NCBI GenBank assembly: GCA_041082215.1
Contig: JBDOIF010000148.1
Span: 1-59,988 of the forward strand
From: Anaerolineae bacterium
GTDB taxonomy: Bacteria; Chloroflexota; Anaerolineae; B4-G1; DUEL01
Length of the DNA: 59,988 nucleotides
Direction of reading: 5' to 3'
Under the pieces are notes generated by a model. It was not told where the DNA came from, did not search any database, and saw only the letters and a list, made by a program, of their open reading frames with translations. Below, in pieces: positions 7,107 to 28,204 of this stretch. Within the stretch, counting starts at the first letter, position 1. Each line of letters opens with the position of its first letter. The translations under genes and the position numbers were made by a program.

Positions 7107-8102
7107 ATGTTCCAGACCCGTGTCACAAAACTGCTGGGGACCCGGTACCCGATCGTCGGCGGCTGCATGATGCACATCTCCGGGCCGGAATTCGTCGCCG
7201 CCATCTCCAATGCCGGCGCGCTGGGGATGATGGCCTCGGCGATGTTCCCCTCCCAGGAGGAGTTCCGCCAGGCCGTCCGCCGCTGCAAGGAGCTTACCGA
7301 CAAGCCCTTCGGCGTCAACCTGAGCCTCTTCCCGGCCCTGCGCCCCATAGACAACAACCTCTACGTCGAAGTGATCCTGGAGGAGGGGGTGCCGGTGGTG
7401 GAGACCAGCGGCCACCGCCCGCCGGAGGAGCTGCTGGCCCGGCTGAAGGAGGGCGGGGTGGTCACGATGCACAAGTGTGTCAGCATCCGCCACGCCCTCA
7501 GCGCCCAGCGGGCAGGGGTGGATGCGGTGACGGTCTTCGGCAGCGAGGGCGGAGGCCATATCGGCGAGCTGGGGTTGAGCACGCTGATCCTGATCCCTAT
7601 CGCCGCCGACGCGCTGGACATCCCGGTGCTGGCCGCCGGCGGCATCGCCGATGGGCGGGGGCTGCTGGCTGCGCTGGTCCTGGGAGCCGAGGGGGTCACC
7701 ATCGGCACCCGCCTCCTGCTCACGGAGGAATGCCCCATCCACCCCAACCTCAAGCGGGCGCTGGCCGAGGCCACCGAACTGGACACCCTCCCCATCCTCG
7801 GTTCCCTTCACAACACCCTCCGCGCCTGGAAGAACGAAGCCGCCCAGAAGGTAGCCGAGCTGGAGGGCCGGGGGGCGGAGATGTGGGAGGTCCTCTCCAT
7901 CGTCGCCGGAACACAGACGAAACGGATGTTTGAGGGAGGCGATGTAAACGCCGGGGTCCTGGCCTGCAGCCAGTCCATCGGCCTCATACGGGAGATCAAA
8001 CCCGTGGCCGACGTAATCCGGGGGATGGTGGAGGAGGCAGCAGCGATCCTGAACGGCCTGGAGGGTTGTGAAAGACCCGGATGGCCTCAGCAAGTAAGTT
8101 AA
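7107..8102 (+). CDS. Nitronate monooxygenase/FabK-like flavoenzyme
   Basis: Motifs YPIVGGCM, PFGVN, EGGGH, AAGGIADGRG and IGTR. RBS GAGGAG before ATG 7107. Confidence 0.85.
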   Translation: MFQTRVTKLLGTRYPIVGGCMMHISGPEFVAAISNAGALGMMASAMFPSQEEFRQAVRRCKELTDKPFGVNLSLFPALRPIDNNLYVEVILEEGVPVVETSGHRPPEELLARLKEGGVVTMHKCVSIRHALSAQRAGVDAVTVFGSEGGGHIGELGLSTLILIPIAADALDIPVLAAGGIADGRGLLAALVLGAEGVTIGTRLLLTEECPIHPNLKRALAEATELDTLPILGSLHNTLRAWKNEAAQKVAELEGRGAEMWEVLSIVAGTQTKRMFEGGDVNAGVLACSQSIGLIREIKPVADVIRGMVEEAAAILNGLEGCERPGWPQQVS

Positions 8103-8113
8103 GGAGGATACCT

Positions 8114-9955
8114 ATGAACACAGCAGAACTTTTCACCGCCAGGCAGTCCAGCAGGGTTGTCCTGGCCTTTGTCCTCTGCCTGGTCTTGCTGATCGGCGCG
8201 GTGGCGCTTGCCTGGCTGGTGCAGAGGGATTTTGGCCGGGTCGAGGTCTCCAACGTCACCTACCCCAACTACAACGGCATCCTCGTCCGCGCCAAACTGC
8301 TCCGACCCAACGACGCCACACCTTCCAACCCGATGCCGGGGATCGTCTACATCCACGGCTATCAGAACAACCGGGAGACCAGCGATGCCTACTGCATCGA
8401 GCTGGCGCGGAGAGGCTTCGTCGTCCTCAACATTGACGCCATCGGACGGGGCAACTCCGGCATCCCCAATGACCCCGCCGACCCCGACTTCGACAAGACC
8501 TACGGCGGCCGCACGTCGCTGGCGTACCTGAAGGCCCTGCCCTTTGTGGATCCCAACCGGGTGGGCTTGATGGGCCATAGCCTGGGCGCAGAGATGGCCT
8601 ACACCATCGCCCTGGGGGATCCCACGGTTCGGGCGCTGGTGATCTCCGGCTTCGCCTACACCACCGACGCCTCGCCGACGATGCCGAAGAACATGCTGAT
8701 GATCATCGGCCAGTACGACGAGTACCGGAAACGGATGACCGGTGTCAACGACATCGCGGCAGAATGGATGAGCAGCCCTCAGACGCGCAGCGCGATCCCC
8801 GTCCAGAACCCCCAGATCGGAGTGACCTACGGGGACTTTGCCCAGGGGACCGCACGGCAGGTCTTCGTGCCCAGGACCATCCACATCCTGGAATCCCACA
8901 GCCGGATCGCCATCGCCGAGGCTCTGCAATGGATGAAGAGCGCCCTCCAGCCCGACGAACAATACTGGATTGACCCTGCCCGCCAGATCTGGCCGATCAA
9001 GGAGTGGGCCACGCTGGTGGCTATGGCAGCCTGCTTCGCCAGCCTGCTGCCGCTGGCGCTTATTCTGCTGCGGACAGGGTTCTTCCGCTCCCTCCAGGGG
9101 CCTGCGGCCGGGACCTATTCCTGCTCCGGGCGAGCTTACCTCAAGCACGCCACCGTCAACGGGCTGCTGATGTGGCTCTACCTGCCGCTGATCTTCGCCC
9201 TTTTCGGCCTTCACGTCTATGTTATTCCCATTGACAGGGTCTTCCCGATGATGATGGTCAATGGGACCGTCTGGTGGTTCCTGTGGATCAACCTGTTCGG
9301 TTTCCTCATCTTCCGTCGGTGGTACAAACGACAGGCCCGAGAGCGCGGGCTCACACTGGCCGACCTGGGCATTTCCTATCGGCAGGACCGATTCGCGCTG
9401 GATTGGGGCCAGATCGGCAAGGCGGCCCTCCTGGCCGTGCTCCTCTTCGGCTTCGCCTATCTCTGCGAGTATATCCTGGAGCAGGTCTTCATCGTGGACT
9501 TTCGCTTCATCTTCCCCTTCGCCAGCGACCTCACTCCCTACCGGTGGCTGATGTTCCTGCTGTACTTCCCCTTCCTCCTCGTCGGTTTCGTCCTGCTGGG
9601 GTTTTTCCTCCACGGGCAACTCCGCCGGCCCAGGAAGGAGACCTGGCTGAGGACCTTCCTTTCCTGGTCGTTCTGGAACACCCTGGCGCTGGTCGCACCG
9701 CTGATCCTCTTTCTGATGGTACAGTACCTGCCTCTGCTGACGACCGGAGCTATCCCCTTCGTCGGCCCGGGAGGGATGCTCGCCTCCTTCACGATGAACC
9801 TCTTTCACATCATTGGCGTACTGATGATCACAACCCCCCTCTCGACCTGGCTCTATCAGCTCACCGGCCGGCCCTACGTCGGCGCGATCCTCAACGCCGC
9901 CATCGTCGCCTGGATGTTCACCTCCTCCCAGGTCATCGCGCCCATCCCGGTCTGA
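8114..9955 (+). CDS. Membrane-anchored alpha/beta hydrolase with polytopic C-terminal membrane domain
   Basis: HG oxyanion motif, GHSLG nucleophile elbow, about 8 C-terminal hydrophobic helices. RBS AAGGAGG. Confidence 0.85.
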   Translation: MNTAELFTARQSSRVVLAFVLCLVLLIGAVALAWLVQRDFGRVEVSNVTYPNYNGILVRAKLLRPNDATPSNPMPGIVYIHGYQNNRETSDAYCIELARRGFVVLNIDAIGRGNSGIPNDPADPDFDKTYGGRTSLAYLKALPFVDPNRVGLMGHSLGAEMAYTIALGDPTVRALVISGFAYTTDASPTMPKNMLMIIGQYDEYRKRMTGVNDIAAEWMSSPQTRSAIPVQNPQIGVTYGDFAQGTARQVFVPRTIHILESHSRIAIAEALQWMKSALQPDEQYWIDPARQIWPIKEWATLVAMAACFASLLPLALILLRTGFFRSLQGPAAGTYSCSGRAYLKHATVNGLLMWLYLPLIFALFGLHVYVIPIDRVFPMMMVNGTVWWFLWINLFGFLIFRRWYKRQARERGLTLADLGISYRQDRFALDWGQIGKAALLAVLLFGFAYLCEYILEQVFIVDFRFIFPFASDLTPYRWLMFLLYFPFLLVGFVLLGFFLHGQLRRPRKETWLRTFLSWSFWNTLALVAPLILFLMVQYLPLLTTGAIPFVGPGGMLASFTMNLFHIIGVLMITTPLSTWLYQLTGRPYVGAILNAAIVAWMFTSSQVIAPIPV

Positions 9956-10011: not shown

Positions 10012-10803
10012 ATGACAGCCGATCCTGTCCTGTTTGAGAAAACCGATGCCATCGCTACCATCACCCTCAACCAGCCCCAGACCCTCAATGCCCTCACCTA
10101 CGAGATGACGCTCCGTCTGCGGGATATTGTTGAAGAGATAGCGGGCGACCCCGAAGTGCGGGCAGTTCTGCTGACCGGCGCAGGCCGGGGGTTCTGCTCG
10201 GGGGCCAACCTGCTTTCCGGCTCCGCCGAGACCCTCGCCGCAGGCGGGATGAGGATGCGGGCGCTGATCCTGACGATGAACGACGTCCTGGCCCGCATCG
10301 TCGAGATGGAAAAGCCCTGGCTGGCGGCGGTCAACGGACCGGCAGTGGGCGGCGGCTGTAGCCTGGCTCTGGCCTGCGACCTGGTGCTGATCGCCGAGTC
10401 GGCCTACCTGTGCCTGGGCTACGTCAACCTCGGCCTGGTGCTGGATATGGGCAGCACCTTCCTGCTACCCCGGCTGGTCGGTCTGCGCAAAGCGGCCGAA
10501 CTGGCCTTTTTCGGCGAGCGGATCTACGGATCAGAGGCCGCCGAACTGGGCCTGGTCAACCGGGCTGTGCCAGACGACGCGCTGATGGATACCGCCCGGG
10601 AGTGGGCTGCACGCCTGGCCGCCGGACCCACGGTCGCGCTCGGGGCGATCAAGCTGGGGATGCACCGGGCCCTCCACGCCTCCTTCCGCGACGCCCTTCA
10701 CTGGGAGGCTATGATGCTCTCCCTCGTCGCCCAGACCGGAGACGCCGCCGAAGGGCTGATGGCCTTCTTCCAGAAACGGAAGCCGGACTTCAAGGGACAG
10801 TGA
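10012..10803 (+). CDS. Enoyl-CoA hydratase/isomerase
   Basis: Motifs FCSGANL, AVNGPAVGGG and AFFQKRKPDFKG. True start is ATG 10012, after AAGGAG. Confidence 0.9.
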   Translation: MTADPVLFEKTDAIATITLNQPQTLNALTYEMTLRLRDIVEEIAGDPEVRAVLLTGAGRGFCSGANLLSGSAETLAAGGMRMRALILTMNDVLARIVEMEKPWLAAVNGPAVGGGCSLALACDLVLIAESAYLCLGYVNLGLVLDMGSTFLLPRLVGLRKAAELAFFGERIYGSEAAELGLVNRAVPDDALMDTAREWAARLAAGPTVALGAIKLGMHRALHASFRDALHWEAMMLSLVAQTGDAAEGLMAFFQKRKPDFKGQ

Positions 10804-10826
10804 AGACGCGGAGACGCAATGGTGTG

Positions 10827-12023
10827 ATGCAAACGAATATGGACACACAAACGTCCCGTCCCCTGGACGGCCTGCGCGTGCTGGACCTCTCCCGTCTACT
10901 CCCCGGCCCCTACTGCTCCCTCATCCTGGCCGACTTCGGGGCGGAGGTGATCCGGATCGAGCCGCCCGACGGAGGGGACTGGCTCCGACATGTGCCGCCG
11001 CTGGAGGAAGGGGTGAGCGTCCTCTTCCGCGCCCTCAACCGGGGCAAGAAGAGCCTCGCCCTGAACCTCAAAGCCCCGGAGGGAAGAGCGGTTTTCCTGC
11101 GGCTGGTGGAGACGGCCGACGTGCTTCTGGAGGGGTTCCGCCCCGATGTGATGGAACGGCTGGGCCTGGGGTATGAGCGGCTGGCCCGGGCCAACCCCCG
11201 ACTGATCTACTGCGCCCTTACCGGCTACGGCCCCGAAGGCCCGTATCGGGACCGGGCCGGGCATGATCTGAACTACATTGGCCTGGCCGGCCTTCTCGAC
11301 CTGACGGGGCCACGCGACGGGCCGCCGGTCATCCCCGGCACCCAGATCGCGGACCTGACCGGTGCGCTCTGGGCGGCGATCGGCATCCTGCTGGCCGTGG
11401 TGGCGCGGCAGCGAACCGGTCGGGGGCAGCGGGTGGATGCCTCCTTCCTGGGAGCGGCGCTGGCCTGCCTGCCGCTGCCGGTCGCCCGACAGCGGGGCGG
11501 CCTGCCGATGGCCCGGGGCGGAAGCGACCTGACCGGCGGCGTGGTCTGCTATCAGGTCTATGAAACCGCCGACGGTGGCTACCTGACGCTGGCGGCGCTG
11601 GAGCCTCAATTCTGGGCCGCCTTCTGCCAGGCAGTGGGCCGGGAGGAGCTGATCGGCGAGCAGTACGCGCCCGCCGTCCCCGGCCAGCCCACCTACGAGG
11701 CTCTGCGCGCCCTCTTCCGGAGCCGCACCCGCCAGGAGTGGGCGGGGATGCTGGCGGAGACGGATGCCTGCTGTGAGCCGGTGTACACGCTGGCGGAGGC
11801 GCTGGCCTCCCCGCCTGTGGAAGCGCTGGAGATGCTCACCGACATCGGGCTGCTTCCCCCCGTCCGTCTCTCGGCCGGGCCGTCTCCCGCCCCTGTCCCT
11901 GCCCCCGCCCTTGGGCAACACACCCTTCCACTGCTGACCGGGTTGGGGTACACTCCCGCCGAGATCGCGGCACTGCGGGAAAAGGGGGTCATCGCCCTGC
12001 CAGCCACGCCACCATCAGTGTGA
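10827..12023 (+). CDS. CaiB/BaiF class III CoA-transferase (alpha-methylacyl-CoA racemase-like)
   Basis: Motifs LDGLRVLDLSRLLPGP, LNRGKKS, GHDLNY and PALGQHT. Confidence 0.9.
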   Translation: MQTNMDTQTSRPLDGLRVLDLSRLLPGPYCSLILADFGAEVIRIEPPDGGDWLRHVPPLEEGVSVLFRALNRGKKSLALNLKAPEGRAVFLRLVETADVLLEGFRPDVMERLGLGYERLARANPRLIYCALTGYGPEGPYRDRAGHDLNYIGLAGLLDLTGPRDGPPVIPGTQIADLTGALWAAIGILLAVVARQRTGRGQRVDASFLGAALACLPLPVARQRGGLPMARGGSDLTGGVVCYQVYETADGGYLTLAALEPQFWAAFCQAVGREELIGEQYAPAVPGQPTYEALRALFRSRTRQEWAGMLAETDACCEPVYTLAEALASPPVEALEMLTDIGLLPPVRLSAGPSPAPVPAPALGQHTLPLLTGLGYTPAEIAALREKGVIALPATPPSV

Positions 12024-15000
12024 GGACCTCCCCGCTGGATGCCAGCCGGTCCGGTTCGATCCGATCGGCGGTGTCGGTGGGCAGGTAGAAGTCCCGCTCC
12101 GCCTCATCCCAGATGAGCTTGACAGTGGGGATGGACTGGCCGCTGAAGGCCGTATGCCACCCCTCGCCGGTGCTCCCTCGCCGCCAGACGCGCCGATCCA
12201 GCAGCGCCGCACCCGCCTCCAGCCGCTGGATCAGGGGCAGGTCGTGTTCCCGGGTGCCGTAGAAGAGCAGCTTGTACCCCCGGCCGCCCCCCACCCCATC
12301 CAGCGCCACCACCCCTACCGTCCGCGTGAGAGGGAGGGCAGGATGAGCCAGGTAATGGGCTACCCCCACGCTCCCCACCTCCTCCGCTCCCCAGGCGGCG
12401 AAGACCACGGTGCGGGCCGGCCGATACCCCGCCTCCCGCCAGACCCGCGCCATCTCCAGAAGCGCCGCCACACCGGAGCCGTTGTGGTTTGCGCCAGGGA
12501 AGAGCACCCCGTCCGGCGAACGGCCGATGTGATCGTAGTGGGCCCCCACGATGAGCACCTCATCCGCAAGCCCCGGGTCGCTCCCCGGCCACACGCCCAG
12601 CACGTTGGCAGTGAGCGTGGTGGTGAGAGGGGTGCGCGGCAACGACAGCCGCACCCGCACCCCCAGCGGCAGCGCCGGCGGCGATGCGGCCAGGTCGCTG
12701 TACTCCACCCCCACGTGGGCCAGCAGCCGTTCAAACCCCTCTTTGCCCAGCACAAAGACGGGGATGGGCGCATCCCCTTCCAGGCCGGGCCGGAGAGGGG
12801 TGAGAGCCAGGGCTGAGGATTCCTCCTCTGTAACGACGATCAGCCCCCCTGCCCCCCGCTCGGCCAGCTCCGTTGCCCGGGCCGGAGGATCATCCACACC
12901 CTGTTCCAGGACCACAGCTCCCCCGAACCGCAGCCCCTCCAGGTCGCGCCCGCGCACCCAAACCAGCTCTCCCTCCACTTCTCCCGCCCCGCTCCGCTCC
13001 ACGAAATCCCGCCGATACTCGAGCGCGAGCGCCACCTGTCCCTCACCGTCCAGCAGCGCGAAGGCGGGGATAGTGAGCATCTGGGTGTGGGAGATGGGGA
13101 ACCACTGGAAATACCCCCGCTTGCCTTCTGCCAGCAGGTCGCCCAGCGGCTCAAGTCCCGCCGCCGCAAACTGCTCGGCGATGTAGGCCGCTGCCCGGTC
13201 CGCCCCCTCTGTCCCTGCCTCCCGCCCCCCCCAGTCGGGGCCGGAGAGCAGGGCGATATCATCCAGCGCCCGGCCAGCGTCGAACCGCTGCGCCACCCCG
13301 ACCAGCTCTTCCGGCACTCCGCTATTCAGTGCGTACTCCCGCCACCCTTCCTGAAAAGCCGCCGGGTCCACCCCCAGCGCTCGCTCCAGCGCTGTGGCCA
13401 GGTCACCGGCGCCCACCGCCCGCTCGATCAGCCGCCGCAGCCCCGCCTGCCCATACCGCTCGGCCACATAAGCGACCACCGACCAGGACTGAGCATAGGC
13501 CAGCTCGACCTGCCCATCGGGCAGTTCTTCAAAAGAGGGGAGCGAATCGAGCGGCAATTCCTGATGGCGGCGAACGGCATCCTGGACCACCGGCATATAG
13601 CGGGCCGCTGTCCAGTGCTCCCCCATCGGCGTCACCTGCCCCCCCTCGTAGGCTGCCACACCCTCCTGCAGCCAGTGATCCTCCAGCCCCCGCGCGAAGA
13701 GCACCTGATGGGCCAGCTCGTGGGCCAGGGTCTGCAGGATCGCCCGGTCGCTCTCCCCCCGCAGCCATAGTTTGATGGACTCCCCCGGCTCGGTCCACCC
13801 GGTGACCCAGCCCGGCAGGGAGAGGGAGATGGAGGTCCGGAAAAGCTCGCCGTCCCCATAGAGCTTGATCTCCTGCGGAAGCGGAGGAGTTGCCCCCAGG
13901 TCGGCTGTCACCCGCCTGTAGGCCGTTTCCGCCAGCTCCAGGACGTGGCGCGCCCACGCCTCGTCGCCGCCCTGATACTTCAGCAGAAAGTGGTCGCTCC
14001 GAAGCTGCCGCCAGGCCACACCTGCGTACCGCCATCCCCCCTCCTCCCGCACGAAGCGGGCGTCGTAAGTCAACCGGCTGGACTGTCCGCCGGAGATGGC
14101 CGAGCTTACAGTCAGCGCCACCGTCGCCTCCCCTCCGCCGGGCGACCAGCCCACCAGCTCCCCGGCAAGGGTGTAGGAAAGGACGGGGTGATCGGTCAGG
14201 TCGGCAAACCAGTTCCCCTCCTCGATGCGCAGGACCGGGTCGGCTGAGGTGACGGTCCCCAGGAATCCCGTCCCATCGCCCGAAAGGACCGCTCCAGCGC
14301 GGGCGTCGAGGACCGCTTTGATGGCCGCTGCGTCCGCCCGCAACGGCTCCAGCCAATCGGCTCGCCAGTCGGCCTCGAACCGGGCAGGAGAGACCCCCAG
14401 CCCTTCCTGGAAGGCGGCTTCGGCGTTGCCCGTCTCCTTCCAGGCGGCGCACAGCGCCCGCAGCCCCGCCGTGCCGTGGCGCTCCAGCAGGTACCCGGCA
14501 AGCCCCCAGGCAGCAGCCTGCCAGCTCTCATCCTCCGGCGACGCCGGGGCGGAGAGCCATTGCAGTTCGGAGGAGGTGACCACCTCGGCGGCGGCAAGGG
14601 CCGGCAGGAGGTCCCGCGCTGCGTCGGGCCGGTAGCGGAGCGCCAGCCCCTCTCGCAGCCAGGGGGCCGCTTCGGACGGGAGGCCCATCTGGCTCAGGAG
14701 GAGGCTCGCCAGGGCTGGGGTGACCGGCTCCCCCCAGGCGATCTCAACCCGCCTCGCCGAGGGGACCAGCCAGCGGCTCTCCCTCCCGACGGCCGGCCGG
14801 GCGATGGCCCGCATCGCGGCAGAGCTGGGATAGAAGATGACGCGCACACCGGGAGCTGGCTCCACCCCCAGGTCCGCAGCGAGGGCCAGGTAGGCCGCCT
14901 GGGTGGTGGAAAGCAGCTCACCAGCCCCCACCGGCACATCCGGGAAGCGGGCCACGGTGACGAGGTCGCCGGAGAGGGTGTCCAGCTCGTAGTCGGCCAG

Positions 15001-16857
15001 GACCCACACCCCATTCCGTTTCACGAAACGGACATCGTAGGAGACCGAAGGCTCCCGCCGGGTCGCATCGGCCCAGCGGTAGGCCACCGTGAGGCCCACC
15101 CTCGCCTCCCCCTCCCCGACCCGAATCCGCTCCGGCTCCATCACCAGTTCGGTCAACTCCCGCGACCAGAGGTTATCGAACCAGCCAGCCTGGGCGGCCC
15201 GGAGATCGGCGTCGGCGGGGTCCACCCCGGCCAGGAACGCCCCCCGGTCCCCCGTAGCGACGGCAGCCCACAGCCGCTCCACTGCCCGCTCCACCTGGAC
15301 GTGCCCGTCGGCCAGCGCGGCCAGGGTGTGGGCAGCGATGACGCCGGAGGCCTGTAGCTTCTCCACCGCGATGGCCTCCGCTGCATCGTCCGGCGTGTGA
15401 TAGACCTCATCGGGCCACCAGATGGGCATCGCTGCCGGGACCCCGGCCTGGATAAAGGTGGCGTGGTCGCTGCGGCCGATGGACGAATGGGTGGCGGTGA
15501 TGCCGAAAACGGAGGCGCTGGCCAGCAACTGAGCCGCCACCGGCTCCTCGCCATCCACCATCAACGCCTCGCCGCCGCCGACCATATCCAGATTGAGCAC
15601 GGCGACGGTCTGGCTAAGGGGAAGGACAGGGTTCTCTACATAATATTCGGAGCCAAGCAGCCCCTGCTCCTCCCCGTCCCAGGCGGCGAAGAGGACGGTG
15701 CGGGCCGGGCGGAACCCGGCTTCGTGCCAGAGCCGGGCGATCTCCAGCATCGTCGCCACACCGGATGCGTTGTCGTTGGCCCCGCGCATCACCTCGCCAT
15801 CCGGCTCCTGGCCCAGGTGGTCGTAGTGGGCGCCGACGATGACCACCTCGTCGCTCCGCTCCGGGTCGGCCCCCGGCAGCAGCGCCAGCACGTTGCGGGC
15901 CTCCACCGCCTCTAGCTCCTCCAGCCGGACCTCCATCCGCACGGTTACCGAGAGGGGGGTGGCGGTGAAGCGCAGGCTGAGATCGTCCAGCGTGTAATCG
16001 GTCCCCACCAGCAGGTCCTCCGCTACCCGTTCGGAGATCAGGTAGGCGGGGATCGTCTCCGGCACCCAGGCGGTCTCCCGGTAGCCGCCCCGCCGGAAGA
16101 TCGGCCCCTCCCGCTCCCGGTCGAGCAGGAGCAGCCCTCCCACCCGGTGCTCGACCGCTTCCCGATAGACCTGAAAGTCGCCGGTGTACCGGCAGAGGAC
16201 GATCCTCCCTACCAGGTCCTGCCCGAGGAAGGCATCGTGGTCGCACCGGTTGAGCCAGACCACCCGCCCTTCCCCGGCCCCTGCGCCGACGTAGCCGCCG
16301 GTGAGGGCGCGGTAGTCGGTGCGGTAGCCGTAGGTATGGGTGAGGACCTCCCCGGTGGGGAGGACCACCTCAAGGGTCGGCAGTTCGACGATCCGGCCGT
16401 AGGGAAGGGTGAAGGTCTGGAAGTAGGTGCTGTTCAGGCCGGCTGGCTCCAGGCCGTATTCGGCGAAGCGGGCGGCGATGTAGTCACCTGCGGCCCGGCC
16501 GCCGGGGGTGCCCGGCTGTCGCCCGCCGCGGGCGTCGGCGGCCAGATAGGCGATATGCTCTAAGGCCTGCTCGACGTCAAACCCACGGGCCAGCGCCGCA
16601 TGGTCGTCGGCAGGGATCAGCCCCTCCGGGACGACCGGGGCTGGCGCGGGTGTTGCCGTCGGCCGCGCCCCCCCGGGGACGATGGTGCCCGCTGAGGGGA
16701 GCTGGAACCGGGGGGAAGCCGTCACCTCCGCTGCCGTTCCCGGCCCGCTGGGCCGCAACAGTATCCCCAGGTAAACGAGGATGGCAGCCTGCAGGAGGGC
16801 CAGGACGATTATCAACGGGATGAGCACACGGCGGTTTACAGCAGGTGGTTTACGCAT
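11989..16857 (-). CDS. Giant membrane-anchored multi-domain metallopeptidase: PA-M28, NTF2-like, MA-like, NTF2-like, MA, PA-M28
   Basis: N-terminal TM helix. First M28 set AHYDH, GANDNASG, GEEQG, NLDM, YHTPDD. Gluzincin HELAH...EG. A second, degenerate M28 set at the C-terminus. Confidence 0.85.
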   Translation of the reverse strand: MRKPPAVNRRVLIPLIIVLALLQAAILVYLGILLRPSGPGTAAEVTASPRFQLPSAGTIVPGGARPTATPAPAPVVPEGLIPADDHAALARGFDVEQALEHIAYLAADARGGRQPGTPGGRAAGDYIAARFAEYGLEPAGLNSTYFQTFTLPYGRIVELPTLEVVLPTGEVLTHTYGYRTDYRALTGGYVGAGAGEGRVVWLNRCDHDAFLGQDLVGRIVLCRYTGDFQVYREAVEHRVGGLLLLDREREGPIFRRGGYRETAWVPETIPAYLISERVAEDLLVGTDYTLDDLSLRFTATPLSVTVRMEVRLEELEAVEARNVLALLPGADPERSDEVVIVGAHYDHLGQEPDGEVMRGANDNASGVATMLEIARLWHEAGFRPARTVLFAAWDGEEQGLLGSEYYVENPVLPLSQTVAVLNLDMVGGGEALMVDGEEPVAAQLLASASVFGITATHSSIGRSDHATFIQAGVPAAMPIWWPDEVYHTPDDAAEAIAVEKLQASGVIAAHTLAALADGHVQVERAVERLWAAVATGDRGAFLAGVDPADADLRAAQAGWFDNLWSRELTELVMEPERIRVGEGEARVGLTVAYRWADATRREPSVSYDVRFVKRNGVWVLADYELDTLSGDLVTVARFPDVPVGAGELLSTTQAAYLALAADLGVEPAPGVRVIFYPSSAAMRAIARPAVGRESRWLVPSARRVEIAWGEPVTPALASLLLSQMGLPSEAAPWLREGLALRYRPDAARDLLPALAAAEVVTSSELQWLSAPASPEDESWQAAAWGLAGYLLERHGTAGLRALCAAWKETGNAEAAFQEGLGVSPARFEADWRADWLEPLRADAAAIKAVLDARAGAVLSGDGTGFLGTVTSADPVLRIEEGNWFADLTDHPVLSYTLAGELVGWSPGGGEATVALTVSSAISGGQSSRLTYDARFVREEGGWRYAGVAWRQLRSDHFLLKYQGGDEAWARHVLELAETAYRRVTADLGATPPLPQEIKLYGDGELFRTSISLSLPGWVTGWTEPGESIKLWLRGESDRAILQTLAHELAHQVLFARGLEDHWLQEGVAAYEGGQVTPMGEHWTAARYMPVVQDAVRRHQELPLDSLPSFEELPDGQVELAYAQSWSVVAYVAERYGQAGLRRLIERAVGAGDLATALERALGVDPAAFQEGWREYALNSGVPEELVGVAQRFDAGRALDDIALLSGPDWGGREAGTEGADRAAAYIAEQFAAAGLEPLGDLLAEGKRGYFQWFPISHTQMLTIPAFALLDGEGQVALALEYRRDFVERSGAGEVEGELVWVRGRDLEGLRFGGAVVLEQGVDDPPARATELAERGAGGLIVVTEEESSALALTPLRPGLEGDAPIPVFVLGKEGFERLLAHVGVEYSDLAASPPALPLGVRVRLSLPRTPLTTTLTANVLGVWPGSDPGLADEVLIVGAHYDHIGRSPDGVLFPGANHNGSGVAALLEMARVWREAGYRPARTVVFAAWGAEEVGSVGVAHYLAHPALPLTRTVGVVALDGVGGGRGYKLLFYGTREHDLPLIQRLEAGAALLDRRVWRRGSTGEGWHTAFSGQSIPTVKLIWDEAERDFYLPTDTADRIEPDRLASSGEVLTLMVAWLAGR

Positions 16858-16858
16858 T

Positions 16859-18007
16859 TCACCGTCCCCACACCCCCAGCCCCTCAAACCCCTCCTCAAA
16901 TGTCAGTTGCTCCAACTGCCCGGAGGCCGGGTCGTACACCCAGAGATCGGCATAAGGAAGGTCGCTATTGGGCCTGCGACGCATCGGCCCCATCGTGAAG
17001 AGGAGCAGGGACGAACGGGAGGCCGCCCCCACGCCCTCAGGCGACCAGTTGGGCCAGACCAGCCAGTAATCCCCCTCCATATAGCTGCCCGGCTCCACCG
17101 CATCCATCTGCCCCGACTCAAGGTCCAGGATGAACAGCGCCTGTCCGTATTCCCGCACTACCTGAAAGGAGGCGGCGAGGGCGATGTGCTGGCCGTCGGG
17201 CGACCAGACGACCTCCTCCGGGTTCCCGGTCATCTGCGCCACTTCCTCCATCTCTCCCTCCCCGCGGACGATGAAGAGGACACAGGCGGAGCCGGTCGCC
17301 ACGGCCACCGCCACCGCTTCCCCGTCCGGCGACCAGGCGGCAGCGCTGGCCCGGCCCCACACCTCCCGCATCTCCCCCCCTTCGACGGGGAGCCGATAGA
17401 CGCCGGACTCTTTCCCGATGGGGGCCGCGACCAGCAGCAACTCGTCGCCAGCGGGCGACCACTTCATCTCGTCCACGACAAACCCGCCGATCTCCAGGCT
17501 CTCCTCCACCCCGCCTCCGTCGGCACGGGCGATGTGGACCGTCGTCGTCAGGGTGCTGCCCTCAGGGGGAGAGGCCTGGGAGACAAAGGCCAGGCGCGTG
17601 CCGTCGGGCGACCAGGCAGCAGGAAGCCCGGCGACAGAGGTGATCCCTTCGCTCACCCGGACCCGCTCCGTACTGTCTGCCGCCGCCACCACGACAACAG
17701 CATCCTCATCCTCCGACCTCCAGGTGATGTAGGCCAGGCGCGTGCCGTCGGGCGACCAGGAGGGGAAGAAAGCCCTCCACCCCTCTTCCGAGACCTGATG
17801 GGGGTTAGAGCCATCCCCCTCCATCACATAGACCGCCGGCTCCCCCTCCTGATCCGACACATAAGCGATTGGCGGCCGGCCCCCCTCCGCCCCGGTCTCC
17901 ACTCCCGCCCCCCGCCGCTCCAAGGTCAGGGCCAATGCCAGCCCTCCGGTCACCACCACCGACACGGCCAGCGACACCGCAATCCCCACCAGCAACCGGT
18001 CCCTCAT
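16859..18007 (-). CDS. TolB-like/PD40 beta-propeller protein with N-terminal TM anchor
   Basis: Repeated WSPDG units after a hydrophobic N-terminus. Confidence 0.88.
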   Translation of the reverse strand: MRDRLLVGIAVSLAVSVVVTGGLALALTLERRGAGVETGAEGGRPPIAYVSDQEGEPAVYVMEGDGSNPHQVSEEGWRAFFPSWSPDGTRLAYITWRSEDEDAVVVVAAADSTERVRVSEGITSVAGLPAAWSPDGTRLAFVSQASPPEGSTLTTTVHIARADGGGVEESLEIGGFVVDEMKWSPAGDELLLVAAPIGKESGVYRLPVEGGEMREVWGRASAAAWSPDGEAVAVAVATGSACVLFIVRGEGEMEEVAQMTGNPEEVVWSPDGQHIALAASFQVVREYGQALFILDLESGQMDAVEPGSYMEGDYWLVWPNWSPEGVGAASRSSLLLFTMGPMRRRPNSDLPYADLWVYDPASGQLEQLTFEEGFEGLGVWGR

Positions 18008-18081
18008 GACGTTTCACACCCCCAGGTCACGCAACACACAATACAAAATACGGAACACGCAACAGGTGTTACCGTGTTCCG

Positions 18082-20538
18082 TCAGTATCTCGGCTCGTGC
18101 GCCGCCGTGATCAGGGTGAGGTTGATCACCTGCGCCGCCTGGCTGAGATGGTCCAGGTCAATGTTCTCCAACCCGTCTGCCGCCAGCGCGGGGACCGGGT
18201 CCCCCCAGGTGACCAGGAGCGTACCATACCGTCCTTTCAGAAGCCCCTGGTAGGGCCAGCGGACCCTTCCCCCCTGTGCTACGGGCACATCCAGCCGGTT
18301 GGCGCTGGCCGCCAGCAGGTTGAACAGGTTGGACTGGCCGGATACCGGCAGCACCACCAGCCCTCTCCCCTGATGACCTCCCAGCCGGTCCAGGTGGAGC
18401 ACGGCGGAGAGCCGGTACGACCCCAGGATGCCAGGCCGATCCTGGAAGGCGTGGGCCCCCGAGTACTGGAGCGGCCCCCCGGCCCAGACGGCAAAGAGGA
18501 CGCTGCGCCTTGGCTGGAAGGACTGCTCCTGCCACAGCCGGGCGATCTCCAGCATCACCGCCACGCCGGAGCCGTTTTCGTTGGCGCCGGGGTAGAGGGT
18601 ACCGTCGGGACCTATGCCCGGCCCGTCGTAGTGAGCGGAGACCACCACCAGCTCGTCGGCCAGGGTCGCGTCCGCCCCATCCAGGAGGCCCATCACGTTG
18701 TAGAGGATGACGGTCTCCGGAGGGGCAAACGATGCCCGCATTCGCACCCGCGCCTCCAGCTCCCGCGCCATCCAGGCCGGGCCATCGTCCCCCAGTGCTT
18801 CGATCTCCTCCTGGAGGGCGCCGAAATCCAGCCCGTCCCCCTCCAGAATGGCGCTGGCCGTCTCCAGGCCGATGCGGAAGACCGGAAGCTCTGGCTGCTC
18901 CAGGTCTCCTTCAGAAAGAATCTGGTTGCGCGGGGCAGCGTCGGTGGAGACGACCAGCACCCCCGCCGCCCCCCGGATCATCGCCTCGGTGTCGAAGTCG
19001 AAGGGAGCGTTGCCCGCCACCACCATCGCCACCCTTCCCCTGAGGTCCAGCCCCCTAAAGCGGGCGTAGCTTTCCGGCGATGGGCGGCGGGTGGCCTCGC
19101 CTGGCCGGAAGAGCACCAGCGTCACCGGGGCCTCCACCTCTCCGCCTCCCCCGTGCCGCTCGACCGACTCGCCGTAGTCGGTCAGGCGGGTGAAGGTACG
19201 CAGCGTCCGCCCGTTCTCATCCACCAGCGTCAGCTCCGGCGGCTCCGCCGGATTGACCAGAGTGACCTCTACGTCCTCGATCCAGGTGGTGAGCCCGTAG
19301 GCCGTCAGCTCGGAAAGGATGTAGTCCGCCGCCTGCCGCGCCTTCTCCGTGCCCACCCCCCGCCCCTCCAGGTCGGGGGCGGTGAGCTGCTCGATGTGGT
19401 GCATCAACCCCGCTTCGTCCACCTGCCGGGCCAGGTGCCGGTAGGAGGGGGCAGGCCCCAGGGTGAGGATCACATAAACGCTGGCAGCGGTGACCAGGCC
19501 AGCCGCCACCAGGACCCGCCAGCTCAGCAACAGGGCAGTGTTGAAGACCCCCCGCTCGATCAGCCGCCGCAGCCCCTCTCCCAGCAGGTTGAAACCGGTA
19601 ACGGAGATAAAGAAGGCCAGCGCGGGGTAGAGGACCATCCAGGGGCGGGAGCGGGCCCAGGCGCGGGAGCCGGCCATCATCGCGCCCCATTCGGGGACGG
19701 TGAAGTACTGACGGCGGGCGAAGTCATCCACCTGGATAGAGATGCCACCGCCGATATAGACCCCCACAAAGCCCAGCTCCCCCAGGATCATCAACACCGC
19801 TCCCATCTCCAGAAGGGTGATGACGATGAGGGCCGGCAGCACATTGGGCAGGATGTGGCGGATCGCCAGCTCCGGCCCGGTCAACCCGATGGCCCGCCCG
19901 CTGTCGAGGAACGGCTCTTTCTTGATGCGGATGAACTCCGCCCGGACGTACTGGGCGATCTCTCCCCAACCTATGGCACAAAGGGCAATGATGAAGACCG
20001 GAAGCCCCCGCCGGATGTCCAGGGCGAAGATGAGGATCACCGCCACCAGGAGCATCGGCAACGAGGCCAGGACCTGCACCGTGCCGGTCACAATCTGGTC
20101 CACCAGCCGACCCTCGCTCCACCCGGCCACCCCTCCGAGGAGCAGCCCCAGTCCGAGCCGGGCCATCGTGATAAAGGCGGCCGCCACCAGGGTATTGCGG
20201 GTGCCGTAGAGGAGCATGCTCAGCGTGTCGCGGCCCAGCTCGTCGGTGCCCAGCGGGTGTTCGGGGGAGGGGGGGAAGGGGGGGCGATAGAAGGTGCCGT
20301 CCCGATATTCCAGAACCCGCCGGCCGTGGAGGTAGGGGTTCTCCGGGGCCAGCGCCGGTCCGAAGAGCACCCCCACAAACAGCGCCAGCACGATCAGCCC
20401 GCCCATCAGCAGCGGGATGTTGAAGAGCACGTGCCGGGGCCGGATGTGCCGGGCGGGAAGCTCATCCGCCGGCACGGTCCGCCCCAGCCGGGAGAGATCG
20501 GCGCGGGGGTTAAGGAGATAAGAGAGAATCCTCCTCAC
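18082..20538 (-). CDS. OppC/DppC-like ABC permease fused to an extracytoplasmic PA + degenerate M28 domain
   Basis: HPLGTDELGRD, EAA-like PFLDSGRAIG...RHILPN and PEWG, followed by SAHYDG and GANENGSG. Start is uncertain (GTG 20538 or ATG 20595). Confidence 0.85.
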   Translation of the reverse strand: MRRILSYLLNPRADLSRLGRTVPADELPARHIRPRHVLFNIPLLMGGLIVLALFVGVLFGPALAPENPYLHGRRVLEYRDGTFYRPPFPPSPEHPLGTDELGRDTLSMLLYGTRNTLVAAAFITMARLGLGLLLGGVAGWSEGRLVDQIVTGTVQVLASLPMLLVAVILIFALDIRRGLPVFIIALCAIGWGEIAQYVRAEFIRIKKEPFLDSGRAIGLTGPELAIRHILPNVLPALIVITLLEMGAVLMILGELGFVGVYIGGGISIQVDDFARRQYFTVPEWGAMMAGSRAWARSRPWMVLYPALAFFISVTGFNLLGEGLRRLIERGVFNTALLLSWRVLVAAGLVTAASVYVILTLGPAPSYRHLARQVDEAGLMHHIEQLTAPDLEGRGVGTEKARQAADYILSELTAYGLTTWIEDVEVTLVNPAEPPELTLVDENGRTLRTFTRLTDYGESVERHGGGGEVEAPVTLVLFRPGEATRRPSPESYARFRGLDLRGRVAMVVAGNAPFDFDTEAMIRGAAGVLVVSTDAAPRNQILSEGDLEQPELPVFRIGLETASAILEGDGLDFGALQEEIEALGDDGPAWMARELEARVRMRASFAPPETVILYNVMGLLDGADATLADELVVVSAHYDGPGIGPDGTLYPGANENGSGVAVMLEIARLWQEQSFQPRRSVLFAVWAGGPLQYSGAHAFQDRPGILGSYRLSAVLHLDRLGGHQGRGLVVLPVSGQSNLFNLLAASANRLDVPVAQGGRVRWPYQGLLKGRYGTLLVTWGDPVPALAADGLENIDLDHLSQAAQVINLTLITAAHEPRY

Positions 20539-20615
20539 AAACCGCCTCGCTCCAGCAGGTCTACAGTTGAAATCGCAGGGCGCATCTTCATACATACCAT
20601 CCGGGGGTCCTTTGG

Positions 20616-20707
20616 CCCTCACCCCTCCCCTGCCGCGCGGGGGAAGGGCGGGGGTGGGGTGAGGGCAACCACTGCCGCGCGGGGGAGGGGCGGAGGCGGG
20701 GTGAGGG
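20616..20707. repeat. GC-rich palindromic REP-like doublet (CCCTCACCCC...GGGGTGAGGG)
   Basis: Two tandem copies of CTGCCGCGCGGGGGA..GGGCGG..GGGGTGAGGG lying between the two permease genes. Confidence 0.6.
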
Positions 20708-20722
20708 TCGCAACAGCTTTTC

Positions 20723-21634
20723 CTACGCCTCCCTCAGCCGCGGGTCAATCCACCGATAGACCAGGTCCAGGAGGAGAGTGATCAGCAGAAAAGTGACCCC
20801 TATACTCAGCGCCAGAGCCGCGACCACTCTGACCTCCCCCTTGAAGATCCCCTCCAGCATCCTCTGTCCCAGCCCTGGCCAGGAGAAGAAGACCTCGACC
20901 ACGGGCAGGCTTCCCAGCCCGAAGCGGAGGGAAACGACGACGGCGGTGAGGATAGGGATGCCGCCGTTACGCAGGGCGTGTCGCCAGAAGACCATTGCTT
21001 CACCCAGCCCCTTGGCGCGGGCGGTGCGGATGAAATCCCGCTCCAGGACCTCGGATAGGGAGACAAAGGTGACGCGGGTGATGTGGGCCAGCGGACGGGC
21101 GGCCAGGACCAGCGCCGGGGCTATCACCTGGGGAAGCAGGCTCCCGGTCCGGTGAAGGCTGACGCCGTAGACAGGGAAAAGGCCGATGCCGGTGCGCTGG
21201 TAGAAGCGGATGTCGGCTACCTGGAGGAGGAGGGCCAGGAAGAAGCTGGGGATCGAGATGCCGATGACCGTCAGCGTGAGGGTGGGCAGGGCGAAGGGGG
21301 AATGCCGCCAGGCCGCCGCCAGCCCTCCGGCCACGACGCCCAGCACCGCTGCAAAGCCGACGGAGACCACAAGCAGCCGCCCGCTGGCCGGATACGCCTC
21401 GACCAGCGCCTCCCGCGCGGCGTGGTCCAGGTCGCCCGCCAAGACGTCGCGGAAGAAGTCGGCCGTTTCCTCCAGCGCCGGGCCGGCCAGGCTCCAGGCT
21501 CCCGGTGAGCGGCCTACAGTGGTGGAGTTGGCCCCCAGGCGCACGCCCAGGATGCAGAAGTATACAATGGCGAAGGCCACCCCGGCAATGAGGAGCAGCC
21601 GTCGCAGGAGGAAGGGCAACAGTCCTCGTTTCAT
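20723..21634 (-). CDS. OppB/DppB-like ABC permease
   Basis: Motifs SIPSFFLALLL, EAA motif DFIRTARAKGL...RHALRN and VEVFFSWPGLG. Confidence 0.9.
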   Translation of the reverse strand: MKRGLLPFLLRRLLLIAGVAFAIVYFCILGVRLGANSTTVGRSPGAWSLAGPALEETADFFRDVLAGDLDHAAREALVEAYPASGRLLVVSVGFAAVLGVVAGGLAAAWRHSPFALPTLTLTVIGISIPSFFLALLLQVADIRFYQRTGIGLFPVYGVSLHRTGSLLPQVIAPALVLAARPLAHITRVTFVSLSEVLERDFIRTARAKGLGEAMVFWRHALRNGGIPILTAVVVSLRFGLGSLPVVEVFFSWPGLGQRMLEGIFKGEVRVVAALALSIGVTFLLITLLLDLVYRWIDPRLREA

Positions 21635-21638
21635 CGCT

Positions 21639-22673
21639 TCAGGCCAGGACTTCCTCCATAACCCTCAGAGTGTATTCGATGTCCTCGTCGGTGATCCAGT
21701 AGTGGGTCACCGCCCGGAAGCGGCCGTCCTCCCGCCCCAGCACCAGCACCCCCCGCTCTGCCAGCCTGCTCGCCACCTCCTCTGGCGACACGTTCGTCTC
21801 GTCGGTGAGCCAGAAGTAGAGGATGTTGGTGCTCACCGGAGAGACCCCCACCCCTGGCAGTTGGGCCAGCCCTTCCGCCAGCCGCTTTGCCCGTGCGTGG
21901 TCCTCCCCCAGCCGGTCGGTCATCTTCTCCAGGGCGACGATCCCCGCTGCCGCCAGCACCCCCGCCTGCCGCATCCCACCCCCCACCACCTTCCGGGCCC
22001 TTCGCGCCTCGGCGATGAAGTCGGCGTCGCCGCAGAGGAGGGAGCCTACCGGCGCGCACAGCCCCTTGGAGAGGCAGAACATCACCGAATCCACCTCCCG
22101 CACCAGCTCCCGCACATCCACCCCCAGCGCCGCCGCCGCGTTGAACACCCGCGCCCCATCCAGATGGAGCCGCAGTCCGTGGGCGTGGGCCAGGCGGGCC
22201 ACCTGAGCGGTGTACTCCGGGGTCAGCGGGGCGCCGTTGCACATGTTGTGGGTGTTCTCCAGACAGACCAGCCGGGAGCGGGGGAAGTGGACGTTGTCTC
22301 CCCGGATCGCCCCTTCGATCTCCTCCAGCCGCAGGGTTCCATCGGCCTGGTTGGGAATGGGGCGGGGGGTGATGCCGCCCAGCGCCGCCATCCCTCCCTG
22401 CTCAAAGAGGAAGGTGTGGCTCTGATCGCCGACGATCGCCTCGTCGCCGCGGCCACAATGGGTGAGGAGCGCCACCAGGTTCCCCATCGTCCCGCTGACG
22501 ACAAAGAGCGCCGCCTCTTTCCCCATCCGTTCCGCCGCCATCCTCTCCAGCCGGTTAACGGTGGGGTCCTCCCCGAAGACATCGTCTCCTACCTCCGCCC
22601 GGTACATCGCCTCCCGCATCTCCGGGGTCGGGTGGGTCACCGTATCGCTGCGCAGGTCAATGACCCTTCTCAT
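21639..22673 (-). CDS. ltaE: Low-specificity L-threonine aldolase
   Basis: Motifs IDLRSDTVT, GDDVFGEDPT, LENTHN, HLDGAR, CLSKGL (PLP Lys) and GGGMRQAG. Confidence 0.93.
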   Translation of the reverse strand: MRRVIDLRSDTVTHPTPEMREAMYRAEVGDDVFGEDPTVNRLERMAAERMGKEAALFVVSGTMGNLVALLTHCGRGDEAIVGDQSHTFLFEQGGMAALGGITPRPIPNQADGTLRLEEIEGAIRGDNVHFPRSRLVCLENTHNMCNGAPLTPEYTAQVARLAHAHGLRLHLDGARVFNAAAALGVDVRELVREVDSVMFCLSKGLCAPVGSLLCGDADFIAEARRARKVVGGGMRQAGVLAAAGIVALEKMTDRLGEDHARAKRLAEGLAQLPGVGVSPVSTNILYFWLTDETNVSPEEVASRLAERGVLVLGREDGRFRAVTHYWITDEDIEYTLRVMEEVLA

Positions 22674-22708
22674 CTGTACCTCCTTCCCCACGCGCTTCGA
22701 ACGGTCGA

Positions 22709-22736
22709 ATTATAATCCTCCTGGCTCCCAAGTCAA
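22709..22736 (-). promoter_or_regulatory. Sigma70-type promoter of the ltaE-permease-peptidase operon
   Basis: TTGACT-16 nt-TATAAT on the minus strand. Confidence 0.65.
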
Positions 22737-27281: not shown

Positions 27282-28184
27282 ATGGAACGGGTAGAGCTGG
27301 CTCCCGACATCTTCCATCTCCAGTCCGGCGTCAACATCGGGCTGGCAGCCCGGGATGGGAAAGGGCTGCTGATTGATACCGGCCTGGATAAAGACACCGC
27401 CCGAAGGGCGTTGCGGATAGCCGAGGAGATGGACGTGCAGATCGAGGCGGTGTTCCTCACCCACGCCCATGCCGACCATTTCGGCGGCGCCCACTTCCTT
27501 CAACAGCGCCTTGGCATCCCTCTCTATGCTCCGGCCCTCGAGGCGGCGATGATGGAAAACCCCATTATGGAGCCGCTCTTCCTCTTTGCCGGGGCAGCGC
27601 CCATCGGCGAGCTGCGCCAGAAGTTCACCCTGGCCCCCCCCTGTCGGGTGGACCGGGTTGTCGAGTCGGGGCCGCTGGAGGTGGGGCCTTTCCGGGTGGA
27701 GGCGGTGCCGCTTCCGGGCCACGCCCTCAACCAGATGGGCGTCGCTGTGGACAATGTGCTCTTCTGCGCCGACGCGGTCTTTCCGGCAGAGACGCTGGAA
27801 AAACACAAAATCATCTTCTGCGCGGATATGGACGCCGCGCTGGAGACGCTGGCGCGCATCCCGGAGATGCCGTATGCCCACTTCGCCCCCGGCCACGGCC
27901 CCGCCTACGCGGCGGGGGACGAAATCCGGGAAATCTGCACAGCTAACCGGGTCCGGCTGGAGGAAATCCGGGCGCGGGTCCGGGAAGCGCTGGCCGAACC
28001 CGCCGACACCGACGCGCTGGTCCGGCACATCGCCGACTCCTACGGCCTGCACCTGACCACTGCCACCGCCTACTACCTCACCCGCACCACCATCCTTGCC
28101 GCCCTCTCCTCCCTGGAGCGCGCCGGAGAGGTAAGGGCGGTGGTGGAGGAGAACCAACTGATATGGGTGAGCGCCTGCAAATAA
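27282..28184 (+). CDS. Metallo-beta-lactamase fold hydrolase
   Basis: Motifs LIDTG, THAHADH, PGH, CAD and PGHG. Confidence 0.9.
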   Translation: MERVELAPDIFHLQSGVNIGLAARDGKGLLIDTGLDKDTARRALRIAEEMDVQIEAVFLTHAHADHFGGAHFLQQRLGIPLYAPALEAAMMENPIMEPLFLFAGAAPIGELRQKFTLAPPCRVDRVVESGPLEVGPFRVEAVPLPGHALNQMGVAVDNVLFCADAVFPAETLEKHKIIFCADMDAALETLARIPEMPYAHFAPGHGPAYAAGDEIREICTANRVRLEEIRARVREALAEPADTDALVRHIADSYGLHLTTATAYYLTRTTILAALSSLERAGEVRAVVEENQLIWVSACK

Positions 28185-28204
28185 CAAATCCGAAAGGGGC
28201 GGCT

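Follow-up and report, generated by a model that had tools for sequence, protein, structure and literature searches.

What can a peptide-type importer be doing when the genes for its binding protein and its ATPases are missing, and when a peptidase fold has been added to its membrane part? Type I ATP-binding cassette (ABC) importers have three kinds of parts, namely a binding protein, a pair of permeases and a pair of ATPases, and it is against this background that we consider a locus of an Anaerolineae bacterium, carried by a stretch of 59,988 nucleotides (hereafter the window), which is the whole contig C54 of the 3.53-Mb genome G000 (96% complete, 174 contigs). An OppB-like permease gene is followed there by a gene that joins an OppC-like permease to a peptidase-like domain of the PA-M28 type, and further downstream by a gene for a peptidase-like protein of 1636 amino acids (aa), the giant. 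This conserved gene set is a real, undescribed arrangement. The reading that we rank first, with a probability of roughly 0.42, is that the dead M28 domain tethers an active aminopeptidase of the giant to a permease that still works and borrows its ATPases. Five co-oriented minus-strand genes, close-packed between 11989 and 22691, make up the locus, just where the original prediction had placed them:

21639-22691, minus strand: pyridoxal phosphate-dependent aldolase of the GntG/LtaE family, 350 aa, Beta_elim_lyase domain; first gene of the local operon

20723-21634, minus strand: OppB/NikB-like ABC permease, 303 aa, BPD_transp_1 domain (E 4.6e-29), about six transmembrane helices, canonical EAA loop

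18082-20622, minus strand: OppC/NikC-like::PA-M28 fusion, 846 aa, with Pfam matches to BPD_transp_1 (aa 159-359) and Peptidase_M28 (aa 642-775)

16859-18007, minus strand: accessory PD40 beta-propeller protein, 382 aa, PD40 repeats (Pfam), membrane-anchored by an N-terminal transmembrane helix

11989-16899, minus strand: giant peptidase-like protein, 1636 aa, two M28 stretches and Peptidase_MA_2

The fusion protein is the most unusual member of the set. Its likely true start is a GTG at 20538, and it divides into three parts:

19543-20538, minus strand: OppC-like transmembrane domain, aa 29-360, EAA loop kept in 21/21 sequences

19459-19536, minus strand: extra seventh transmembrane helix, aa 363-388, hydropathy 2.32, preceded by an Arg-rich loop and conserved among relatives

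18085-19452, minus strand: PA-M28 pseudo-peptidase domain of 456 aa, aa 391-846, recognized from its model and Foldseek, probably extracytoplasmic

The C terminus of OppC-type permeases is cytoplasmic and a seventh helix has been added here, so that aa 391-846 are expected to lie outside the cell. Modelled with a predicted local distance difference test score (pLDDT) of 91 and a predicted template modelling score (pTM) of 0.88, this domain has as its best Foldseek match the PA-domain aminopeptidase 2EK8 (E 4e-31), then PaAP, GCPII and TfR, the secreted PA-domain M28 aminopeptidases ranging from E 4e-31 to 3e-25. In M28 enzymes a Glu-Glu pair provides the general base and a zinc ligand. Compared with the Vibrio/Aeromonas leucyl aminopeptidase, the fused domain has Gly-Pro in place of this pair and Glu in place of the bridging Asp. 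The pair is absent from all 21 aligned family members, which have E, G, D or A at the bridging Asp position; across further relatives this position may also be K, and the pair reads GG, GP, AN, AE or takes other forms. Judged from its residues, the fused domain is thus a conserved pseudo-peptidase, catalytically dead, that has kept the PA-M28 fold, and here the original prediction, which had seen an OppC-like permease fused to an inactive peptidase, was right. TfR and nicalin are sequence matches of the domain as well (E about 3e-6), and no Pfam match to TFR_dimer, the helical dimerization domain of the TfR type, is present in the fusion, which ends right after the M28 core.

The giant holds peptidase-like modules of its own behind a signal-anchor transmembrane helix at aa 29-47, its single membrane anchor:

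15250-16617, minus strand: N-terminal PA-M28 aminopeptidase module, aa 95-550, catalytic residues invariant in 23/23 orthologs

13210-15219, minus strand: middle region, aa 561-1230, two tandem gluzincin modules (M1-like, clan MA), identified by Pfam MA_2, model and Foldseek

11992-13209, minus strand: C-terminal PA-M28 module, aa 1231-1636, with a degenerate metal site

It had been described as a multi-peptidase, and this has to be revised, as its modules have fared very differently. The residues that do not change in the N-terminal M28 module are H358, D360, D376, E410, E411, D438 and H479. The middle 670 aa are modelled at pLDDT 88 and match M1 aminopeptidases in Foldseek over about 330 columns (E about 2e-5); the first gluzincin repeat has no HExxH, while the second, which reads HELAH in the window copy, keeps an intact HExxH in 4 of 18 orthologs, the window's included. 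In the C-terminal M28 module the bridging Asp (His here) and the first Glu are variable among 19 orthologs. Both the HExxH and the C-terminal site are therefore degenerate in most orthologs, and because only the N-terminal M28 module keeps an invariant site, the active site that stands under constant selection is that of an aminopeptidase. At five loci the giant is longer, of about 2000-2200 aa, with an N-terminal polytopic DUF418 (YeiB-like) domain that replaces the single anchor helix:

Giants with DUF418: L045:12533-18673, L048:3057-7835, L054:12933-19265, L057:10906-17259 and L058:12921-19502

How could a dead peptidase and a live one be related in function? One pairing was modelled, with the fused dead domain (29 sequences aligned) on one side and aa 95-550 of the giant (23 aligned) on the other. 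The complex model has an interaction score (ipSAE) of 0.74 (0.72, 0.74 and 0.77 in the runs), the best of three controls reaching 0.00; of 157 solved complexes 116 attain the mark applied to this score, as do 2 of 215 mismatched pairs, figures that are a rough guide here, custom alignments having been used. The runs give 42-44 contacts, at least 93% of them in common, with a pLDDT of at least 88 for the partner. In this model the interface joins PA domain to PA domain, through residues 100, 126-138, 155-161 and 181-187 of the fused domain and residues 202, 224-230, 242, 246, 249-252 and 276-281 of the giant. Conservation points the same way: on a joint alignment of related sequences, in which the alignment of the subfamilies is uncertain in the PA region, the 20 contact residues of the fused domain have in the giant-linked subfamily a mean top-residue share of 0.73 vs 0.57 for the rest (Mann-Whitney p 0.003), whereas these residues are hardly ever retained by 13 ectodomains of stand-alone fused forms with no giant nearby (0.09 vs 0.32, p 0.0002). 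Only the giant-linked subfamily has the motifs HGGSG, GLDLRGR and NAPxDFxTEAxIRGA. Taken together, the model, its clean controls and these subfamily-specific contacts support a PA-to-PA contact of the dead domain with the N-terminal aminopeptidase of the giant, hence the physical complex that the original prediction had proposed.

Several observations weigh against such a docking, or at least against its specificity. The two partners are paralogs, about 33% identical, and their contact is pseudo-symmetric; since they are paralogous, it may be a generic mode of pairing. The C-terminal PA-M28 module of the giant could compete for the same surface. On the side of the giant, the contact residues are invariant or nearly so in 3 of 20 cases, with no enrichment.

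The original prediction had gone further, and had given the dead domain the role of a substrate receptor that takes the place of OppA, receives the peptides cut by the giant and passes them on to the permease, ATPases acting in trans. There is something to be said for this. Inactive M28 folds are receptors in TfR and nicastrin, and TfR and nicalin are among the sequence and fold matches of the fused domain. OpuA and GlnPQ have binding domains fused to importer permeases, and here too the domain is tethered directly beside the OppC-like subunit, at loci that have no family-5 binding protein. The former active-site residues vary freely among relatives, however, so that the old cleft does not have the look of a conserved binding pocket, and the subfamily-specific surface that is conserved most is not this catalytic cleft but the part of the PA domain that the model puts against the giant. 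An M28 fold is not known to dock on a type I importer, or to open it, in the way of a binding protein. The genome has at least four Opp-type binding proteins that lack an adjacent permease pair and could serve in its place. A receptor of this kind consequently appears unlikely to us, and we judge just as unlikely the bolder idea of a cut-and-import machine, where the pseudo-aminopeptidase would both recruit the active aminopeptidase and replace the binding protein, with hydrolysis and translocation coupled at one site.

Whether the genes belong together at all is a question that the relatives answer. A sequence search with the fusion gave 718 proteins at E<=0.001 among 8000 candidates scored, and 115 of the best 120 of these matches have both BPD_transp_1 and Peptidase_M28; the source names given among the best 120 are all of Chloroflexota, Anaerolineae or Anaerolineales metagenome-assembled genomes. 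An Atlas lists look-alike clusters labelled mostly Bacillota, of which the named members that were looked up are Chloroflexota or unnamed. A scan of species genomes provided 36 fusion loci, all in Chloroflexota. Where 900 nt or more of DNA precede the fusion, which is so at 32 loci, an OppB-like gene always stands directly upstream of it; where 3 kb or more follow, at 29 loci, a giant, 40-80% identical, lies downstream in 26, all but L040, L055 and L059; the fusion-giant unit spans at least two classes as labelled, Anaerolineae and Caldilineae. Among 301 genomes sampled in the class, the permease family (E<=1e-60) is found in 99 and the giant (E<=1e-30) in 26, all 26 among the 99, and in 15 of these 26 the two matches stand within about 7 kb on one contig, counts that overstate their statistical weight because related genomes are not independent. 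At none of the 36 loci is there a family-5 binding protein, so that homologous loci do not come with an OppA of their own, and none has an OppD/F-type ATPase, four of them showing distant ABC ATPase matches only, at 25-39% identity. Genes that co-occur in this way, at homologous loci without OppA, favour a real system, as had been anticipated.

The idea that the genes are unrelated and adjacent by chance in this genome may draw on two of the neighbours, the aldolase and, in many loci, the propeller, which are not conserved. For the three core genes it is excluded by the position of the giant and by the presence of the permease family in every giant-bearing genome, and we give it next to no credit. 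The aldolase, which scores 537.9 bits against NF041359 (cut-off 230), was considered as a pathway member under the name ltaE, as the original prediction had it, and rejected: it is found upstream in the window and at L027 only, 1 of the 36 related loci. The propeller is present at 10 of 29 loci by tblastn, with L037 added by Pfam; its earlier label, TolB-like, has to be given up, since it scores 94.4 bits against TIGR02800 (cut-off 343) and has PD40 repeats only. The core thus has three members, the OppB-like protein, the fusion and the giant. The propeller is optional, and the aldolase stands outside the set.

The loci of the relatives show a number of variations around this core. A gene for an Ntn-type amidohydrolase (CBAH/AAT) is placed between fusion and giant at L030:7727-9679, L033:12762-13943 and L034:13738-14943, the protein of L030 carrying a caspase-like C14 domain. 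In L027:13431-20690, a close relative, about 8 kb are inserted between fusion and giant, and encode a Ser/Thr kinase with FG-GAP repeats, a PD40 protein and a Type ISP restriction-modification enzyme. At L055:939-10094 one OppB-like gene precedes three OppC::M28 fusions with no giant, and at L104:10380-18378 two units of OppB-like and fusion genes adjoin a complete OppDFABC operon, again with no giant.

A search of 1.84 billion representative proteins followed by Pfam scans separated the family into three architectures: the split form of the window; a single OppB::OppC::M28 chain, about 1200 aa long and more frequent than the others in the class sample; and a chain of about 1450 aa that begins with an ABC ATPase domain. 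In this last form (P0141, P0155, P0165) a degenerate MacB-type ATPase, OppB-like, OppC-like and dead M28 parts follow one another on one chain. Nine sequences of its ATPase domain, which is MacB/LolD-like, were compared: all nine are without LSGGQ and without the H-loop His, three have a canonical Walker A, and the Walker B Glu is replaced in three, a state from which we would predict that the domain cannot hydrolyse ATP. The genes for this form lie directly behind MacB-like permease and HlyD-type genes at five of five loci (L116-L120; for example L116:8353-16113, minus strand), and their order is the same as in an intact operon of MacB, HlyD and ATPase genes at G000:C134. Within about 8 kb of the fused forms, at 12 loci, no giant, binding protein or second ATPase was found. 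Other relatives differ in what they carry outside: P0131, a rare one, is a single chain in which the permease pair and its fused M28 are joined by yet another M28, matched by Pfam over its full length, and two metagenomic representatives have, respectively, DUF7507 with LysM in place of M28 (P0186) and M28 followed by DUF6624 (P0140). The permease chassis seems to accept various extracytoplasmic add-ons.

If the permease pair still transports, where does its energy come from? In the window, tblastn with the genome's own OppD, OppF and OppA (E<=1e-5) and Pfam scans of 38 further open reading frames (ORFs) yielded no ABC ATPase and no family-5 or other binding protein, as the original prediction had noted. 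Elsewhere in the genome there are 12 genes for family-5 binding proteins and 14 oligo_HPY ATPases in seven adjacent pairs, and searches for oligo_HPY, for binding proteins and, by tblastn, for OppB/C/D/F place all seven pairs in or beside complete Opp operons, C24 and C34 looking like two contig ends of one such operon; a partial Opp-type ATPase fragment on the small contig C110 was not placed. The genomes G041 and G042 have three ATPase pairs, each beside a canonical operon, and the permease family without any, while in G042 and G045 paralogous copies of the family adjoin a complete OppDFABC operon. The genome G000 has a second Opp-type operon, with a binding protein and two permeases and no ATPase genes, at G000:C94:21226-24645 (L133:1783-5652), and it follows that the pair described here would not be alone in this genome in needing shared ATPases. 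Among sugar importers, ATPases that serve several systems are documented (PMC7658222). That the pair described here shares ATPases with other Opp operons is therefore plausible. When the fused ATPase domain of the relatives was used as bait in G000, the best matches were MacB-type and gave no candidate partner: three of the four best, on C134, C14 and C78, stand beside a MacB/FtsX permease, two of them with HlyD; for the match on C102 the permease ORF only was scanned, and a fifth, on C99, belongs to an NMT1-type importer.

The same facts may be turned around, and one may think of the membrane pair as a device that no longer transports, kept as a scaffold, or as a conformational relay, for peptidase-like domains of the surface, without ATP hydrolysis. 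About 50 loci were examined that are without an ATPase, bar the one fused domain, degenerate in all nine cases; no orphan OppDF pair turned up in three genomes; and pseudo-enzyme modules are many in the system, from the dead fused M28 to the degenerate C-terminal M28 and the mostly degenerate HExxH of the giant. What this account does not explain is the state of the membrane domains, which are the best-conserved part of the family (45-88% identity vs 27-74% for the ectodomain). The EAA loops, whose task is to engage ATPase domains, hardly vary in any of the three architectures, so that a partner is implied: they are canonical in both permeases of the window, and the OppC-like one (nearly invariant in the 21 aligned sequences) ends in an invariant RH(I/V)LPN (21/21). 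Such conservation is hard to square with a mere anchor, for which a single helix suffices, as in the giant. A second, separately encoded ATPase partner is still implied in the fused forms, since they have one ATPase-like domain for two EAA loops. We hold this explanation to be doubtful, though a stronger competitor than the receptor.

The reading that we prefer, docking plus uptake, may then be spelled out as follows. The system would be a surface module peculiar to Anaerolineae and Caldilineae, with an oligopeptide-type ABC importer as its chassis. The OppB-like and OppC-like proteins would form the membrane pair, and the seventh helix would put the dead PA-M28 domain on the outer face, beside the OppC-like subunit. 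This domain would mainly be a docking site, its PA domain binding that of the giant's N-terminal aminopeptidase, so that peptides might be trimmed at the mouth of the permease. The latter, most likely a transporter still, would be energized by OppD/F-type ATPases lent by one of the seven complete Opp operons of the genome, and free binding proteins possibly also feed it. As to the orphan genes that the original prediction proposed to look for, binding proteins without an adjacent permease pair exist, at least four of them, and an orphan OppDF pair does not appear in the assembled 96% of G000, nor in G041 and G042. This last result weighs against the uptake that we propose, as do a few others. 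No OppD/F-type ATPase or binding protein stands within about 10 kb at any of the 36 loci, and the family may have left ATP-driven transport behind, because the ATPase domain that became fused to it is degenerate throughout. Stand-alone fused forms without a giant are commoner, and for this reason the permease with its dead domain must also have a role independent of the giant. Finally, the products of an aminopeptidase are single residues, and Opp-type permeases do not usually carry these.

It is useful to compare this arrangement with systems that are already known. With the Opp/Dpp/Nik importers (OppBCDF plus OppA) it shares an OppB-type and an OppC-type permease, both BPD_transp_1 proteins whose EAA loops are canonical, and, in the fusion, the N-terminal loop motif of OppC. 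It differs from them in having no binding-protein or OppD/F genes at its 36 loci, and a seventh helix and a 456-aa ectodomain on the OppC-like subunit; both permeases fall outside the curated equivalogs, scoring 137-150 bits, below every NCBIfam Opp/Dpp/Nik cut-off (300-590), with best scores of 137 bits (cut-off 350) and 150.5 bits (cut-off 350). LNPRADLS, a conserved motif of the fusion's cytoplasmic N-terminal extension (aa 29-57, 20454-20538), is absent from ordinary OppC proteins. As in OpuA and GlnPQ, an extracytoplasmic domain is covalently tethered to the permease of a type I importer, but the fold is here PA-M28 and not that of a binding protein, and OpuA and GlnPQ keep ATPase genes of their own. 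TfR, nicastrin and nicalin are likewise membrane-tethered, dead ectodomains of the M28 type; unlike them, the fused domain finds its best matches in bacterial PA-domain aminopeptidases, has no TFR_dimer and is part of a transporter subunit. The PA-inserted M28 fold is that of the Aneurinibacillus aminopeptidase 2EK8, of PaAP of P. aeruginosa and of BSAP/YwaD of B. subtilis, and the N-terminal module of the giant keeps, as the secreted enzymes of this kind do, all its catalytic residues, with the difference that the fused copy is dead while the active one is a module of a membrane-anchored protein of 1636 aa. With the FtsEX- and MacB-type systems, which act on extracytoplasmic partners, it would share an ABC-type membrane unit with an outer domain that possibly retains or regulates a hydrolase outside the cell, and the sister forms resemble MacB systems by their ATPase-like domain and by their location behind MacB-like permease and HlyD genes; the membrane domains are here, however, of the BPD_transp_1 type I importer kind and not of the FtsX fold. 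Finally, in its workings the system would come closest to an Opp-type importer joined with a surface peptidase, as in the lactococcal pair of PrtP and Opp, in which surface proteolysis is functionally coupled to peptide uptake; protease and transporter are there separate and not known to dock, whereas tethering by a pseudo-enzyme is what the complex model suggests here. Existing annotations of the family say only 'M28 family peptidase' or 'ABC transporter permease subunit', and no published description of the architecture was found in the full-text literature, most subscription journals being outside the scope of that search, so that the word undescribed, used in the original prediction, may stand.

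Some features of the locus itself complete the picture:

22709-22736, minus strand: promoter-like site upstream of the aldolase gene, TTGACT, 16 nt, TATAAT, a consensus match only

20623-20722, no strand assigned: C-rich tandem repeat between the OppB-like and fusion genes, seen in the sequence

From the aldolase to the giant the intergenic gaps are, in order, 4, about 100-185, 74 and about 0 nt, and the promoter-like site (22736-22709) agrees with the consensus at 11 of 12 positions, in a region that held five such sites vs 1.0 expected. A single promoter and one operon had been proposed; the tight spacing and this match agree with the proposal, and the aldolase, with which the operon would begin, is not a conserved member. 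A possible hairpin in the gap at 20623-20722 folds no better than shuffled sequences (z -0.9). Near-identical DNA is present in runs X1-X6, labelled hot springs metagenome, and in DNA run X2, from a related strain, the 20623-20722 stretch has several small deletions, with a 13-nt insertion at 18071. Run X8, from an RNA library, has short near-identical contigs of low depth on the giant, on the fusion and on the aldolase/OppB junction; this is a weak hint of transcription, because DNA carry-over is possible and such contigs cannot show a single transcript, and stretches that the RNA contigs leave uncovered carry no weight either way.

The 3' end of the operon abuts a convergent CoA-transferase gene. 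A minus-strand ORF of 341 aa at 10896-11921 was considered as a sixth gene of the operon and rejected: it has no Pfam match and an Arg/Gly/Pro-rich composition, and is a shadow frame opposite the plus-strand family III CoA-transferase gene within 10410-12023. The contig also encodes a 967-aa PPC-domain protein (28163-31066, plus strand), a 933-aa M4 thermolysin-like protease (34691-37492, minus strand), an M3/M2-like oligopeptidase (55416-56999, plus strand) and an S33/S15-like hydrolase (8081-9955, plus strand), a group of likely secreted or peptide-processing enzymes that fits a proteolytic way of life.

We may ask, to conclude, what this arrangement means for the organisms that carry it. 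In a lineage that abounds in hot springs, in sediments and in the sludge of wastewater, the genes for both usual partners of a permease pair have been lost, and the pair has gained the ectodomain of a pseudo-enzyme. If the docking holds true, bacteria would have in it a counterpart to the eukaryotic dead-M28 receptors TfR, nicastrin and nicalin, and a transporter to which an enzyme is tethered outside the cell would be there as a definite example, open to testing. A membrane pair that had given up transport would be a pseudo-transporter scaffold, which is a rare thing. Should the unlikely cut-and-import machine turn out to be true, we would have a new class of enzyme-coupled importer, independent of binding proteins, in about one-third of the sampled Anaerolineae genomes. 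Transporter or scaffold, the system bears on the way uncultured Chloroflexota harvest carbon and nitrogen from proteins.

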